From the IMG/VR virus record IMGVR_UViG_2721755658_000004: DNA of 12,765 bases. The stretch is one strand, 5' to 3'. The position numbers were made by a program, and so were the translations under genes. The notes below the pieces were generated by a model, which worked only from the letters and a program-made list of their open reading frames with translations, had not been told where the DNA came from and did not search any database. Below are positions 379 to 8,858 of the stretch, piece after piece. Numbering within the stretch: the stretch's first letter is position 1; the number at the start of each line of letters is the position of its first letter. The DNA is from a virus. Lineage: Duplodnaviria > Heunggongvirae > Uroviricota > Caudoviricetes.

Positions 379-393
379 GTTGGAGTCATTACC
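1..393 (+). mobile_element. IS1, partial (3' 393 bp including the right terminal inverted repeat ...GGAGTCATTACC ending at 393); element continues upstream of the window
   Basis: Sequence 1-393 is the exact reverse complement counterpart of the insB-distal end of the complete IS1 at 8844-9236; terminal sequence ttggagtcattacc at 380-393. Confidence 0.85.
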
Positions 394-548
394 CAGAAAT
401 AGTTGCAATTCATAATTGATCATGGGTTGTCAGTTAAACTCGTGGCGATTTAAATAGACTAATTGGGAGTGCGTCCATTACTTATATCTTGTAATGTTAA
501 CTATCAGAAATGATACAAAGATAATATGTCTTTAAAGAAAAGGCTGAT

Positions 549-575
549 GGCGAAAAGTGGCCCGATGAGGGCCAC
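549..575 (-). terminator. Putative intrinsic terminator of the flxA-like gene (7-bp GC-rich stem GTGGCCC/GGGCCAC, 5-nt loop, then TTTTCGCC on the - strand)
   Basis: Hairpin 557-575 lies 15 nt downstream of the stop codon at 590-592; the U-tract is short (4 U). Confidence 0.4.
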
Positions 576-589
576 AATACGGCTGTCAC

Positions 590-922
590 TTAGACGTAAA
601 TATCAATGGTGCCAGCGGTATTTGTATCGTCTTTTTTCTCTTCTTTTTTATCAGGCTGAACTGTCGCGTCTTCATTCTTTTTCTCTGCCTGCTGCCTTAA
701 CAACTGCTCCAGTTGAGCCCTGAGGCTTTCAATTTGCTTCTGTACCAATGCAGCCATTTCTTTTTTCTGCTGTGTCGTCATCCCCTCTTCCGATGAGATT
801 TTCCCAAGCTTTTCAGTCAGCACCTGAATTTGTCTTGTGATTTTGGCTATTTCTGATGTTCCTTCCGGGGCGGAGTTGTTTGAAATAACGGTTGAGGTAT
901 TTCCCTGAATTGTGACAGACAT
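590..922 (-). CDS. flxA: FlxA-like protein, 110 aa, Lys/Glu-rich with predicted coiled coil
   Basis: ORF with strong RBS (AAAAGGAGAAATCT-ATG); translation MSVTIQGNTSTVISNN...TIDIYV matches my recollection of E. coli FlxA (Qin prophage, FliA-dependent); a sigma-28-like promoter sits immediately upstream. Identity is from memory, not a search. Confidence 0.6.
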   Translation of the reverse strand: MSVTIQGNTSTVISNNSAPEGTSEIAKITRQIQVLTEKLGKISSEEGMTTQQKKEMAALVQKQIESLRAQLEQLLRQQAEKKNEDATVQPDKKEEKKDDTNTAGTIDIYV

Positions 923-945
923 AGATTTCTCCTTTTAAAAAAGCA

Positions 946-972
946 CTATCGACATGCACAAAAAAATCTTTA
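946..972 (-). promoter_or_regulatory. Sigma-28 (FliA)-type promoter: -35 TAAAGATT, 11-nt spacer, -10 GTCGATAG (consensus TAAAGTTT-N11-GCCGATAA)
   Basis: Read on the - strand: TAAAGATT-tttttgtgcat-GTCGATAG, about 23 nt upstream of the flxA-like ATG; 7/8 and 6/8 matches to consensus with the correct spacer. Confidence 0.5.
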
Positions 973-1480
973 ATCGTATTTCTTGTGTCATTAATTGTTT
1001 GATGTTCAGATTGTTTTCCTCGCGGGCTGGCGCGCCTCAGAAAGTAAAGCTTGTTGACAGGGGTAAACGTTCGGCAATAATTTTCTGCCGCATGCGGGTG
1101 TTGCATAAAACGTGCTACGTTCCTTTATCGACAGGTCAGGTCACCGCTCACCCGCCGACGAGAAAGCAACACTGACATGCTAAAGCAAAAAATAGATGAA
1201 TAAGTTGAGTTGTGCATATGTAGCCTGACCGTCACAAAGTATATGGTGTCTGTACCAGTAAGATGATGGCCGGACTCTTTAAAAACGAGCTGACCTGCAC
1301 AATACAGGATGGACTTAGCAATGGCTGCTCCTGGCACATAGCAGACCAGAGACACTGGCGTAAAGCCATGGAGGATCGGTGGGAGGAGGTAAAAATCCTC
1401 TCATGCAAAAAATACGCAAAATCGATAACAGTTGGAAATAATTCAATACTCGCACTATCGGAAGTTCACCAGCCAGTCGT

Positions 1481-1525
1481 AGCACGTTCTTGCATATGAC
1501 GTGGCTACGGGTTTCGAGACCGACC
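1481..1525. repeat. Imperfect direct repeat A (about 45 bp), partner of 2502-2551; resembles the 3' end and 3' flank of the pin gene
   Basis: agcacg-ttcttgcata-tgacgtg-gctacgg-gtttc...ccgacc versus agcacg-atcttcttgcata-cgacgtg-ctacgg-tttc...ccgacc; hand alignment only (roughly 85-90% identity over the ~35-bp core, with one 3-nt indel). Confidence 0.5.
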
Positions 1526-1640
1526 CGATCATCAAACGAAACATAAAATTAGCTCACATTATGAGGAAAGGTATCTTTTTGCGCTATGTAAATTCAAAGG
1601 GTTAGCCTCATTTTCCCGATGGCTTTCTCAACACTACTGG

Positions 1641-1669
1641 TTGTGAGCCCTTGCAATGTTCATTAATAT
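1641..1669 (+). promoter_or_regulatory. Candidate sigma-70 promoter for the GIY-YIG gene (-35 TTGTGA, 17-bp spacer, -10 TAATAT)
   Basis: Hexamers at 1641-1646 and 1664-1669 with a 17-bp spacer, about 33 nt upstream of the ATG at 1702; sequence pattern only. Confidence 0.3.
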
Positions 1670-6703: not shown

Positions 6704-6729
6704 GTCTTTAAGTGATAAGCATAAACCGC

Positions 6730-6779
6730 AGCACGATCTTCTTGCATACGACGTGCTACGGTTTCATTTATCTCCGACC
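6730..6779. repeat. Imperfect direct repeat B (copy 2)
   Basis: Duplicate of 2502-2551 at +4228. Confidence 0.5.
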
Positions 6780-7318
6780 GGAAACTTCTTATACAGTGTC
6801 GATATACCAACATCATAGATGATCGCCACCTTCTGGCGAGGAACGCCTGATGCAATTAATCGCCCGGCCTGCGCCCATTGTTCTGGTGTAAGTTTGGGAC
6901 GACGTCCACCAATTCGTCCCTGTGCGCGAGCAGCTTCCAGTCCAGCTTTTGTTCGTTCAACAATCAGTTCTCGTTCCATTTCAGCCAAGGCCCCCATCAC
7001 ATGAAAGAAAAAACGCCCCATTGGTGTGCTGGTATCAATTGAATCCGTCAGACTACGAAAGTTGATGCCTCGTTCGCGCAACTCCTCCACCAACACGACA
7101 AGATGCCGCATACTACGCCCCAGTCGGTCCAGCTTCCAGACAACCAGAGTGTCACCTGCCGATAATGTCCTGAGCAGTTTTTTCAGTCCCGGCCTTTCGG
7201 ACTTTGTGCCGCTTATCTTGTCTTCAAAAATCAGCTCGCATCCTGCACAGTTCAGCGCATTACGTTGTAGATCTGTGTTCTGGTCATTTGTTGATACGCG
7301 TACATAGCCAATAAGCAT
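6764..7318 (-). CDS. pin: Serine-recombinase DNA invertase, Pin/Gin family (copy 2)
   Basis: Translation identical to 2536-3090. Confidence 0.85.
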   Translation of the reverse strand: MLIGYVRVSTNDQNTDLQRNALNCAGCELIFEDKISGTKSERPGLKKLLRTLSAGDTLVVWKLDRLGRSMRHLVVLVEELRERGINFRSLTDSIDTSTPMGRFFFHVMGALAEMERELIVERTKAGLEAARAQGRIGGRRPKLTPEQWAQAGRLIASGVPRQKVAIIYDVGISTLYKKFPVGDK

Positions 7319-7344
7319 GGTAGATCCCCCTGACAAAAGCAGGA

Positions 7345-7737
7345 ATGATGCCATTTGCTCGTTATTTCTGCATTTTCATAAACGTTGGTTTGGGAGAAGC
7401 GGCTAAAAGGAATGTAGGGACAGGGGCGAATCAGATACCTGATATGGGTAGCTTCACGCTTTCTGTTTCAGGTACTGGATATCAAAAATTACCATCAGGT
7501 TTTATTCTTCAGTGGGGCTCAATCGGCGCACCAGGCATTGCACAGGATGTAGTAACCCATTTCCCGATTGCATTTCCAAACAGATGTCTGCGTGTTTTGG
7601 TCTCACAAGACTACACACCAGATAGCGGGGCTGTTGGTTATATTGCCTGTGCAGGTTTTAGTCCCGACCCGGTTAAATTTATATCCAGAGCCAGTACTCC
7701 TGGCCTCGGCGCTTCATTTTTAGCGTTAGGCTGTTAA
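7345..7737 (+). CDS. Tail-fibre protein C-terminal variable segment (fragment; copy 2)
   Basis: Translation identical to 3117-3509. Confidence 0.5.
7373..7398. other. gix/pix-like crossover site (copy 2)
   Basis: Duplicate of 3145-3170; sequence re-read at 7373-7398. Confidence 0.55.
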
Positions 7738-7758
7738 TTTAGCTATATGGAGTGAAAA

Positions 7759-8199
7759 ATGAATTACATATATTCCGCGACTACAAACTCTTTCTATCCG
7801 CTGGAGATGAAAGAGGATTACACTCAAGCTGACTCATGGCCAGATGATGCTGTTGAAGTTGATGAGCAAGTGTATATTAAGTTTTCCGGATTACCGCCGA
7901 AAGGAAAAATCCGTATCGCTGGAGAAAATGGTTTTCCTGCATGGTCTGAAATTCCACCACCAACACATGAGGAACAGATTGCTGCAGCCGAACTGGAAAA
8001 GCAGCAACTGATTAATCAGGCCAACGATTATATGAACAGTAAACAATGGCCTGGTAAAGCGGCTATTGGCCGGCTGAAAGGTGAGGAACTGGCGCAATAT
8101 AATTTGTGGCTGGATTATCTGGACGCACTGGAACTGGTCGATACTTCCGGTGCGCCAGATATTGAATGGCCTACGCCTCCGGCAGTTCAGGCCAGATGA
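7759..8199 (+). CDS. Tail-fibre assembly protein (copy 2)
   Basis: Translation identical to 3531-3971. Confidence 0.7.
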   Translation: MNYIYSATTNSFYPLEMKEDYTQADSWPDDAVEVDEQVYIKFSGLPPKGKIRIAGENGFPAWSEIPPPTHEEQIAAAELEKQQLINQANDYMNSKQWPGKAAIGRLKGEELAQYNLWLDYLDALELVDTSGAPDIEWPTPPAVQAR

Positions 8200-8776
8200 C
8201 ATCCGGCGCGGTGCTGGTATCTGTTGCCGTCACCGCGTCAATGTAATCCAGCGCAGCGTTAAGTCGGGCGGTTTCTGCCTGCGTCAGATTCCGTCCGGCC
8301 TGCAATTTCAGCTGAATCAGACTAATGGAAGCCATTGCAGTATCAATCAGTGACTGACGCTGTGCTTCTGCCGCGCCTACTGCGGCGCTATGCTGTGCCA
8401 CAGTATCTGTTACCCATTTCTCACCATCCCATTCATCGTATGGCGTTAACGGGGCGATAGTGGTTGTATTTTCAGGATAATCACCCGGAGCTGTGATTTC
8501 TTTCGATTCTCCTGTTTCGGTGCTATAGATGATTTCACCGCGATGGTCTGACACATATTCCCATGAGTTTAAATCTGCCGAACGGCAGATTGCATAACCA
8601 GCCTTATGTGTGCCAGGAGCATCTAAACAGGAATATGCAGGGATACCGACACCCACAGCAAGATATTCAGTTGATGCAGAAATATACTCCCGTGTCTCAC
8701 TGTCATAGTTATAAACGGTAATCTCTCCTGCCTTTGTGGCAATAAATTTACTATTCAAGATGGCGTTATACATCAT
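8171..8776 (-). CDS. Tail-fibre assembly protein (copy 2)
   Basis: Translation identical to 3943-4548. Confidence 0.7.
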   Translation of the reverse strand: MMYNAILNSKFIATKAGEITVYNYDSETREYISASTEYLAVGVGIPAYSCLDAPGTHKAGYAICRSADLNSWEYVSDHRGEIIYSTETGESKEITAPGDYPENTTTIAPLTPYDEWDGEKWVTDTVAQHSAAVGAAEAQRQSLIDTAMASISLIQLKLQAGRNLTQAETARLNAALDYIDAVTATDTSTAPDVIWPELPEA

Positions 8777-8843
8777 GCAGCCCTCACAATGTAATTAAAT
8801 GAAATATTACGTGGCCGTGTCTCTGCTGCACCGACAATACTGG
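8773..8843 (-). pseudogene. 3' remnant (about 23 codons) of a tail-fibre gene, truncated by IS1; its TGA stop overlaps the tfa ATG (ATGA)
   Basis: The - strand frame ...PSIVGAAETRPRNISFNYIVRAA* runs open up to the IS1 boundary at 8844; the equivalent remnant in copy 1 (4545-4617) abuts the duplication junction. Confidence 0.3.
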
Positions 8844-8858
8844 GGTAATGACTCCAAC

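Follow-up and report, generated by a model that had tools for sequence, protein, structure and literature searches.

Organization of the locus

The window analysed here, a 12,765-nucleotide stretch of the Caudoviricetes record IMGVR_UViG_2721755658_000004, contains a segment of prophage DNA in two head-to-tail copies between two IS1 elements, IS1L and IS1R, followed by a single-copy right flank (Table 1). In origin, the duplicated unit is the right end of a Mu-tail/lambdoid prophage, now degraded. It carries flxA, a LEM-3-like GIY-YIG gene whose exact protein sequence is widespread, pin with a single pix site, and remnants of tail-fibre and tfa genes, and its first copy is collinear with the uninterrupted prophage in CP088890.1 (4217/4220 nt). 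The Pin/Gin/Cin-type invertible tail-fibre switch is incomplete: pin and the cassettes are present, with one pix per unit, and a search of the unit for an inverted pix partner found none. The inversion boundary at pix was mapped by comparison with L014/L015. The partner site presumably disappeared together with the missing part of the 'Collar' tail-fibre gene, which spans 275 aa in L008/L017 and is truncated here by IS1R. IS1R also marks a deletion of prophage structural genes estimated at ~18–20 kb. Over 3154 nt, the right flank shares 99.9% identity with L029 and others. E1535 (H37), considered as a relative with IS1 beside bor, was rejected, its prophage being a different one, DLP12.

Table 1 Coordinates of the features in the window
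Feature	Position	Second copy	Strand	Basis or remark
IS1L	1–393		+	right-hand 393 bp of IS1, cut by window start; IRR tip 371–393 (...GGAGTCATTACC) faces unit
Unit copy 1	394–4615		.	4222 bp prophage DNA, from CAGAAATAG to CAATACTGG
flxA	590–922	4818–5150	-	Pfam FlxA
LEM-3-like GIY-YIG domain protein, 257 aa	1702–2475	5930–6703	+	Pfam PF22945
pin serine DNA invertase, 184 aa	2536–3090	6764–7318	-	Pfam Resolvase + HTH_7
Silent tail-fibre C-terminal cassette, gp53-like	3117–3509	7345–7737	+	Pfam PF21882
pix crossover site TTCTCCCAAACCAACGTTTATGAAAA	3145–3170	7373–7398, same orientation	-	read on minus strand
Tail fibre assembly protein, 146 aa	3531–3971	7759–8199	+	exact sequence of APK70724.1 and APK70729.1
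Tail fibre assembly protein, 200 aa	3943–4545	8171–8773	-	domain search and exact-protein look-up
'Collar' tail-fibre gene, last ~70 nt, truncated by IS1R	4545–4615	8773–8843	-	comparison with L008/L017
Novel joint GGTACC	4616–4621		.	GGTA (first 4 nt of IS1R IRR) overlapping TACC (last 4 nt of IS1L IRR) on TA
Unit copy 2	4622–8843		.	identical to copy 1 (self-comparison)
IS1R	8844–9611		-	complete 768-bp IS1; IRR 8844–8866, IRL 9589–9611; insA and insB frames intact; A6C frameshift motif
Single-copy right flank	9612–12765		-	late/lysis region, same prophage type as unit
bor/iss	9694–9987		+	right flank
Rz	10019–10480		-	right flank
Rz1	10078–10260		-	right flank
Lysozyme	10477–10953		-	right flank
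Holin	10957–11292		-	right flank
N6/N4 DNA methyltransferase	11369–12421		-	right flank

The two copies of the unit

Exact self-comparison at an offset of 4228 revealed that positions 390–4619 and 4618–8847 are the same in one unbroken run of 4230 positions with 0 mismatches. The repeat period is 4228 bp, and the periodic block (390–8847) measures 8458 bp, or 2 x 4228 + 2, the extra 2 bp being the TA common to both breakpoints. The first-pass annotation had described a perfect tandem duplication in which every ORF of the unit recurs at +4228, doubling the GIY-YIG gene, pin and flxA, and had called for a nucleotide-level self-alignment; with that alignment run and no differences found over the 4228-bp period, the description holds in full. 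Because the unit copies show zero differences, the duplication event is taken to be very recent. The deposited GenBank record also carries it, since exact-protein look-up returned the 146-aa tail fibre assembly protein under two identifiers five genes apart. The look-ups matched APK70724, APK70729 and APK70734, and the lysozyme comes five genes after the second tfa identifier.

Perfect copy identity is also what an assembly or finishing artefact would give. In that case the true locus would be IS1L-unit-IS1R with one unit, and the second copy and the joint would stem from the assembler or from a molecule in the minority, for instance a circle of the excised unit, folded into the consensus. The boundaries of the array coincide with the edges of the IS1 repeats, where assemblers break and join contigs. 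We nevertheless regard an artefact as somewhat unlikely: a polished consensus normally mirrors bases in reads, and chimeras from missed adapters are inverted rather than direct.

The IS1 copies at the edges

IS1R has the features of the IS1 family, namely a length of 768 bp, ~23-bp terminal inverted repeats (GGTGATGCTGCC.../GGTAATGACTCC...), insA and insB', and an A6C frameshift site, and from its sequence it is probably an active source of transposase. Of IS1L, the window includes 393 bp, which are intact and identical to the matching stretch of IS1R; the inverted arms (1–394 and 8843–9236) are 100% complementary. Matches to the canonical IS1 terminal repeats place IRR on the minus strand in IS1L and on the plus strand in IS1R, and IRL on the minus strand in the latter. 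The elements are thus reverse complements with both IRR tips inward, facing each other across 4222 bp, and the inverted orientation noted earlier is confirmed. At the outer ends of the array, each tip is still attached to the unit just as a single-copy layout would have it. A terminal-repeat search gave no IRL or IRR match between 394 and 8843, in agreement with the earlier reading that no IS lies between the units, whose joint is GGTACC only. No new insertion elsewhere is visible within the window.

An origin of the IS1 pair by duplicative inversion is not supported. Unit and lysis region follow each other collinearly, as they do in intact prophages, and reverse-complementing the outer flank of IS1R does not give the inner flank of IS1L (the window begins within IS1L and holds no outer flank for it).

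The GGTACC joint

The junction reads ...CAATACTGG then GGTACC then CAGAAATAG..., and lies within the sequence CAATACTGGGGTACCCAGAAATAG. With its flanking G and C, GGTACC forms the palindrome GGGTACCC (4615–4622), and the joint is mirror-symmetric about its centre. Each breakpoint lies 2–4 nt inside an IS1 IRR tip, as the junction sequence and the IRR positions establish for a distance that the first-pass annotation had already given as 2–4 bp. It is negligibly likely that both breakpoints landed by chance at mirror-image positions no more than 4 nt from two IS1 tips. The joint is the sole KpnI site of the window, and neither IS1/unit boundary is a KpnI site; a cloning origin was rejected as unnecessary, the overlap of GGTA and TACC yielding GGTACC automatically. 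A Pin-mediated origin was likewise rejected: the joint is ~1.45 kb from the pix site, there is one pix per unit, and the joint is derived from IS1.

In the uninterrupted prophage, the corresponding flanks read ...CAATACTGG then TACTCAACC, and ...GTGACTA then CAGAAATAG. Because GGTACC is absent from these flanks, it can derive only from the IS1 tips, and the IS1 copies were therefore in place before the duplication. The opposite order, a duplication older than the IS1 insertions, was rejected, as the native flanks cannot build GGTACC.

Direct microhomologies of 4–6 nt (AATA, CAATA, ATAGT, ATTGAT) occur within 30 nt of both breakpoints and were left unused. The joint instead used the 2-nt TA that is equidistant from each IS1 tip and is the outermost self-complementary dinucleotide. 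That longer microhomologies were skipped for this equidistant TA suggests a process that was symmetric and directed by the ends, not a free search for microhomology.

These features bear on a replication error independent of transposase, in which a nascent strand carrying the unit and 4–5 nt of IS1R would detach and re-anneal by TA on the IS1L tip behind the fork. The event would be a microhomology-mediated template switch, with the inverted IS1 arms merely bringing the sites together. Joints with a 2-nt microhomology are characteristic of RecA-independent duplications; inverted repeats are known to favour the excision of Tn10/Tn5-like structures by slippage, and slippage during replication is one explanation proposed for basal IS excision. 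However, intrastrand pairing of IS1L and IS1R would loop out the unit and predicts a deletion, not a duplication, and the arms flank the duplicated segment rather than material removed at the joint. Longer nearby microhomologies were passed over, and a 4.2-kb backward jump to within 4 nt of both tips needs a marker of the tips, for which bound transposase is the obvious candidate. We therefore consider such an error unlikely.

A two-step origin is very unlikely. A larger tandem duplication, or insertion in tandem of the entire IS1L-unit-IS1R composite, would first produce unit-IS1R-spacer-IS1L-unit, after which the head-to-head IS1 palindrome would be deleted to its outermost 4+4 nt, in the manner of 'nearly precise excision' or of SbcCD-driven palindrome loss. 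The joint is the exact remainder of a symmetric palindrome deletion between the outermost direct TA repeats, and long palindromes are unstable in E. coli. Against this, deletion of a palindrome tends to be asymmetric and to run between the best direct repeats nearby, two rare events would be needed, and no trace of the intermediate was seen, including in the related genomes searched.

The joint has no match elsewhere among 5426 complete E. coli genomes, PLSDB, INPHARED, GTDB representatives, JGI metagenomes and IMG/VR, and the single-copy joint of the unit end with IS1R was not found in the same collections either. Exact-protein look-ups returned no record of the small ORFs that span the three joints. 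The lack of a match for either joint in every other collection searched is in line with an artefact. Conversely, a join made by overlap or by k-mers would retain much more of the repeat than 6 bp, and the joint shows hallmarks of known in vivo IS-end scars. No assembler behaviour known to us would create, out of exactly 4 nt from each IS tip, a palindromic joint of 6 bp with an overlap of 2 nt.

Origin of the duplication

The shortlist of the first-pass annotation, with a circular intermediate or a microhomology-mediated event at the IS1 ends on one side and an assembly artefact on the other, stands, with an artefact lowered only. What is added is the anatomy of the joint: an IS1-end-directed event is favoured because 4+4 nt are retained symmetrically on TA, longer microhomologies are ignored and the joint sequence is non-native. 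With moderate confidence, we propose a recent, real rearrangement in which IS1 transposition misfired, acting on the IRR ends that the two inverted IS1 copies turn inward (reversed ends). The intact terminal repeats, insA, insB and A6C motif of IS1R are in its favour. Against it, the array is a single sequence, and its joint has no second occurrence in the public collections searched.

The starting point would be the arrangement seen in the window, a prophage remnant bracketed by IS1L and IS1R with both IRR inward and with a complete IS1R that looks functional. The InsAB' transposase would pair the two IRR ends as if they were the ends of one element. The reaction would then abort, and the self-complementary TA would serve to join the unit ends at a point 4 nt inside each tip. 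Staggered double-strand cleavage could leave GGTA-3' overhangs, which would pair through TA before fill-in; alternatively, a polymerase could enter one tip for 4–5 nt and switch to the paired partner tip. Joining of the flanks would accordingly be either a 2-nt template switch or end-joining. To our knowledge, E. coli has no classical NHEJ, which counts against the proposal, and the IS-excision enhancer IEE is a PrimPol with microhomology end-joining activity. We found no published evidence for cutting of the non-transferred strand inside the element by the IS1 transposase, and no published data on IS1 excision scars.

If the paired ends were on one chromatid, a 4228-bp circle would form and enter the unit of the sister chromosome by homologous recombination; if they were on sister chromatids, the join would directly give IS1L-unit-GGTACC-unit-IS1R. 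By either route both IS1 copies would keep their place with no IS between the units, and the two routes are indistinguishable here. The reciprocal product would be a head-to-head IS1 palindrome of 1.5 kb, whose survival in E. coli is not expected. Tentatively, the IS1 transposase may pair the inward ends of an inverted IS1 pair and free the intervening DNA with 4-nt tip-derived overhangs, the resulting IS-free circle or direct sister-chromatid join seeding amplification with no IS at the joints.

Tandem amplifications drive heteroresistance and rapid adaptation, and the pattern usually looked for is an IS-unit-IS-unit array bounded by direct repeats. If our proposal is true, any segment between inverted IS copies is an amplifiable unit, and the amplifiable part of the genome is larger than assumed. 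Such events would escape junction-PCR and IS-based screens, and GGTACC would be their diagnostic scar. IS1 would gain a bacterial counterpart of the 'alternative transposition' of maize and Drosophila, and the scar would offer a clue to the site of end cleavage or of aborted replication in the IS1 transpososome, a site that is poorly defined for this element. If the array is an artefact, the deposited genome needs correction at the IS1L-unit-IS1R locus.

Comparison with known systems

Classical IS-mediated amplification needs direct IS repeats and leaves a hybrid IS at each joint (PMC11253626). The array resembles its products in being an IS1-bounded chromosomal segment in tandem, head to tail, and recent-looking, so that it is probably unstable. 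In contrast, the IS1 copies here are inverted and the joint consists of only 6 bp of IS1 tip sequence without an IS, and the earlier view that recombination between directly repeated IS copies cannot explain the array proves correct.

A closer likeness of the joint is found in abortive transposition or imprecise excision, described for ISApl1 from Tn6330, for IS30 and for the IEE-stimulated IS3, IS1 and IS30 families. ISApl1 (IS30 family) is lost with joints of 1–4 bp that lie no more than ~20 bp from the IS ends, an outcome put down to template switching between the synapsed ends while the element is copied out (PMC5821093). IS1, one of the circle-forming families concerned, is thought to use several transposition pathways and has a low basal excision rate (bioRxiv 10.1101/2023.06.07.543989). 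Such joints combine 1–4 bp microhomology with near-tip positions that keep terminal IS nucleotides, and are attributed to paired ends with a template switch or MMEJ; here, one copy of a shared 2-bp TA is kept and the breakpoints lie within ~20 bp of the IS termini. The difference is that abortive transposition joins the ends of one IS, which is lost, whereas here two IS copies survive and the intervening DNA is gained.

Facing termini of separate nearby elements are used together in the reversed-ends alternative transposition of maize Ac/Ds and in P-element hybrid element insertion, and at the present locus the inter-element segment is joined head to tail with an element-tip-derived scar (unit end-GGTACC-unit start). 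In maize, however, the cut ends reinsert in the sister chromatid, and the duplication endpoints carry the element and a target-site duplication. Here the inter-element segment itself is duplicated, neither IS moved and there is no reinsertion with a target-site duplication; IS1, moreover, is a bacterial DDE IS not known for plain cut-and-paste.

Microhomology-mediated (RecA-independent) tandem duplications share the 2-bp microhomology and the perfect copies. Their endpoints are essentially arbitrary, whereas those observed here are mirror-image, 2–4 nt inside the IS1 tips, with better microhomologies passed over.

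Boundaries of the duplicated segment

In a self-comparison of the window at an offset of 4228, positions 390–4619 and 4618–8847 form a single continuous identity run with 0 mismatches, which bears out at the nucleotide level the perfect 4,228-bp tandem duplication at 390–8847 described in the first-pass annotation. The repeat finder returned one inverted pair, 1–394 and 8843–9236, with arms complementary at 100%. The ends of the left and right IS1 copies (IS1L and IS1R) were placed by matching the canonical IS1 terminal repeats (IRR and IRL) to the window, and three positions were obtained. 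IS1L is clipped by the window start and IS1R is an entire 768-bp element; their IRR tips both point inward, at the duplicated DNA, confirming that the flanking IS1s are inverted. The bases at 394 (C) and 8843 (G) belong to the flanks and are complementary by chance. Only a GGTACC joint separates the two copies of the duplicated segment (the unit), so that the reported lack of an IS between the repeats also stands. The earlier observation is correct in every detail.

Classical IS-mediated amplification requires directly repeated IS copies, and an IS remains at each joint (PMC11253626). With inverted IS1s and no IS at the joint, this route is excluded, as the first-pass annotation had held.

Features of the duplication, its IS1 boundaries and the content of the unit
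Feature	Coordinates	Strand	Sequence or basis
IS1L	to 393
IRR of IS1L	371–393	minus	canonical terminal-repeat match
IS1L-to-unit boundary			...GGAGTCATTACC / CAGAAATAG
Unit copy 1	394–4615
GGTACC joint	4616–4621
Unit-to-unit boundary			...CAATACTGG / GGTACC / CAGAAATAG
Sequence marking unit-unit joint			CAATACTGGGGTACCCAGAAATAG
Unit copy 2	4622–8843
Unit-to-IS1R boundary			...CAATACTGG / GGTAATGACTCC
IS1R	8844–9611
IRR of IS1R	8844–8866	plus	canonical terminal-repeat match
IRL of IS1R	9589–9611		canonical terminal-repeat match
Unit: flxA
Unit: ydfV-like fragment
Unit: LEM-3-like GIY-YIG protein, 257 aa	1702–2475
Unit: Pin invertase
Unit: Pin crossover site (pix), one per unit	3145–3170 and 7373–7398	minus	TTCTCCCAAACCAACGTTTATGAAAA
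Unit: silent gp53-like fibre cassette
Unit: two convergent tail-fibre assembly genes
Unit: remnant, terminal ~70 nt of 'Collar' tail-fibre gene

Prophage origin of the unit

Comparison with related loci showed that the unit is the right end of a prophage that combines a lambdoid late region with a Mu-like tail. Prophages of this type have the gene order methyltransferase, holin, lysozyme, Rz, bor, HNH, terminase, portal, capsid, sheath, baseplate, invertible fibre genes, pin, GIY-YIG, flxA. The right flank of the window (9612–12765) shows 99.9% identity to their methyltransferase-to-bor part and stops between bor and HNH; therefore, IS1R marks a deletion of structural genes. When 8844–9700 is compared with related loci (L024, L027 and L029 on one side, L017 on the other), IS1R is found to bridge the region just upstream of bor and the last ~70 nt of the tail-fibre gene. 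The genes lost are HNH, terminase, head, sheath and baseplate, and the deletion, summed from the L024 and L017 gene maps, is estimated at about 18–20 kb. Three further loci of the same prophage type (L025, L026 and L031) carry separate, independent internal deletions.

A search of the unit for an inverted partner of pix found none, so the Pin fibre switch is disabled; the partner was presumably lost with the deleted stretch. Duplication has left the two pix sites in direct orientation, 4228 bp from one another, and such a substrate is not normally resolved by Pin-type invertases. An origin of the duplication by Pin recombination was rejected because each unit has one pix and no inverted partner.

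The identical GIY-YIG protein occurs in 5608 indexed collection blocks. Its place is always the outer end of a Mu-tail prophage (related loci L003–L012), where its neighbour is pin with invertible fibre cassettes or, depending on the strain, an Acyl_transf_3 gene. In the chromosome, the prophages that bear it occupy many different sites. Directly beyond the flxA end, RVT_1 reverse-transcriptase genes lie beside P4-type integrases in several strains (L003, 1171–3430; L007, 623–2251; L014, 14836–19219); they resemble defence islands, of retron or another type, in the same integration neighbourhood. The 3' ends of the tail-fibre assembly genes share 29 nt (3943–3971 and 8171–8199), an overlap conserved in all related loci. 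Between flxA and the GIY-YIG gene, a 76-aa ORF (1125–1355) falls in one cluster with YdfV, which has 101 aa in K-12, and looks like a shorter form of it. In E. coli EH10-18-47, the corresponding position runs into ydfV-relBE-hokD and not GIY-YIG/pin, so homology of the two prophage types ends ~950 bp into the unit. The flxA region (394–790, equal to 4622–5017) has 99.5–99.7% identity to plasmid segments (database matches H86–H100) from Salmonella, Enterobacter, Edwardsiella and E. coli, including a 6.5-kb Edwardsiella tarda plasmid; therefore, this prophage-end fragment moves on plasmids across genera.

IS1L lies 197 bp downstream of flxA. EH10-18-47 (NZ_CP063499.1; locus L001, 6237–7004) has an IS1 beside flxA in identical position and orientation, which differs by 3 nt, lacks a target-site duplication and adjoins a truncated integrase, and in NZ_CP046416.1 (match H117) an IS1 is found ~24 bp from the IS1L position. 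Either the IS1L joint is shared by ancestry or the site downstream of flxA is an IS1 hot spot.

Anatomy of the joint

GGTACC consists of GGTA, the first four bases of IS1R, and TACC, the last four bases of IS1L, with TA common to both; this overlap makes the periodic block 2 × 4228 + 2 bp long. The joint is mirror-symmetric, with an equal base count from each IS1 tip, and the complementary base on either flank extends it to the palindrome GGGTACCC, inside which falls the sole KpnI site of the window. The uninterrupted unit of the native reference CP088890.1 (4217/4220 identity) is followed by different DNA at its end (...CAATACTGG / TACTCAACC) and preceded by different DNA at its start (...AAAGTGACTA / CAGAAATAG). 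Therefore, the joint is not derivable from native sequence, and both IS1 insertions are older than the duplication; the reverse order was rejected. A cloning origin was also rejected, since the overlap of GGTA with TACC creates the KpnI site by itself.

Direct microhomologies of 4–6 nt (AATA, CAATA, ATAGT, ATTGAT) are present within 30 nt of both breakpoints. The join used the 2-nt TA at IS1 positions 3–4 in both tips, the self-complementary dinucleotide that lies outermost in the arms. This choice argues for symmetric recognition of the tips and not a free homology search. A template switch independent of transposase would account for the 2-nt microhomology, but it leaves unexplained the mirror positions of both ends in the IS tips and the better microhomologies passed over, and hairpin pairing of the arms would favour deletion of the unit over its duplication; we regard it as improbable. 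The same joint would also arise if a tandem composite formed and its head-to-head IS1 palindrome then collapsed, a route that takes two rare events, passes through an intermediate not seen and is very improbable indeed.

Occurrence of the duplication in deposited genomes

The exact 146-aa tfa protein has two GenBank identifiers, APK70724.1 and APK70729.1, five genes apart, and the exact lysozyme protein is APK70734.1. The genes of the window are spaced in the same way, so a deposited and annotated E. coli genome carries the duplication. Neither the novel joint nor the single-copy joint of unit end and IS1R occurs among 5426 RefSeq complete E. coli genomes, of which the deposited genome is therefore not one. 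GTDB species representatives, JGI metagenome contigs and IMG/VR also lack both joints. The novel joint was not found in PLSDB or INPHARED, and exact look-up of the tiny ORFs spanning the joints returned none on record. The structure thus rests on one assembly. Perfect identity of the copies and the coincidence of their ends with repeat boundaries are what an assembly artefact could produce; however, no assembler behaviour known to us would leave a symmetric tip scar of 4+4 nt whose halves share 2 nt, and we consider an artefact unlikely.

A possible transposition-related mechanism

By analogy, the joint looks like the scars of failed transposition. Loss of ISApl1 (IS30 family) leaves joints of 1–4 bp located up to ~20 bp from the IS ends, and this 'abortive transposition' has been explained by a template switch between synapsed ends in the copy-out step (PMC5821093). 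IS1, too, forms circles; several pathways have been proposed for it, and it has low basal excision (bioRxiv 10.1101/2023.06.07.543989). It is stimulated by the IS-excision enhancer IEE, a PrimPol with microhomology end-joining activity.

We propose that abortive-transposition chemistry acted on the facing IRR ends of the two IS1s, in which case the DNA outside the paired ends would be the unit. A 3' end in the unit would copy 394 and then 393–390 of the IS1L tip, giving ...GGGTA-3', re-pair through TA with the IS1R tip and proceed into the opposite unit end; this path, when traced, yields the observed joint sequence exactly. Cutting and joining would work equally well, with GGTA-3' overhangs on both flanks annealing at TA before fill-in. 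Ends on one chromatid would give a 4228-bp circle able to reintegrate by homologous recombination, and ends on sister chromatids would form the tandem duplication directly. We infer the transposase role, the cleavage positions and the circle or sister route from the sequence anatomy, which alone is observed.

Taken singly, IS1, a decayed prophage and a recent tandem duplication are ordinary. It is unusual to find inverted IS1 boundaries, an IS-free joint and a tip-to-tip scar together, and a literature search for a bacterial duplication of this kind found none. If confirmed, it would mean that inverted IS pairs seed gene amplification by an IS-free route and would offer a handle on the processing of IS1 ends; if it is an artefact, a deposited genome is mis-assembled at this locus. 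On the basis of one assembly, we class it as a variant of known IS-mediated rearrangement, by abortive or alternative transposition. In the abortive transposition of ISApl1, both ends come from one IS, whereas here they would be the facing IRRs of two IS1 copies.
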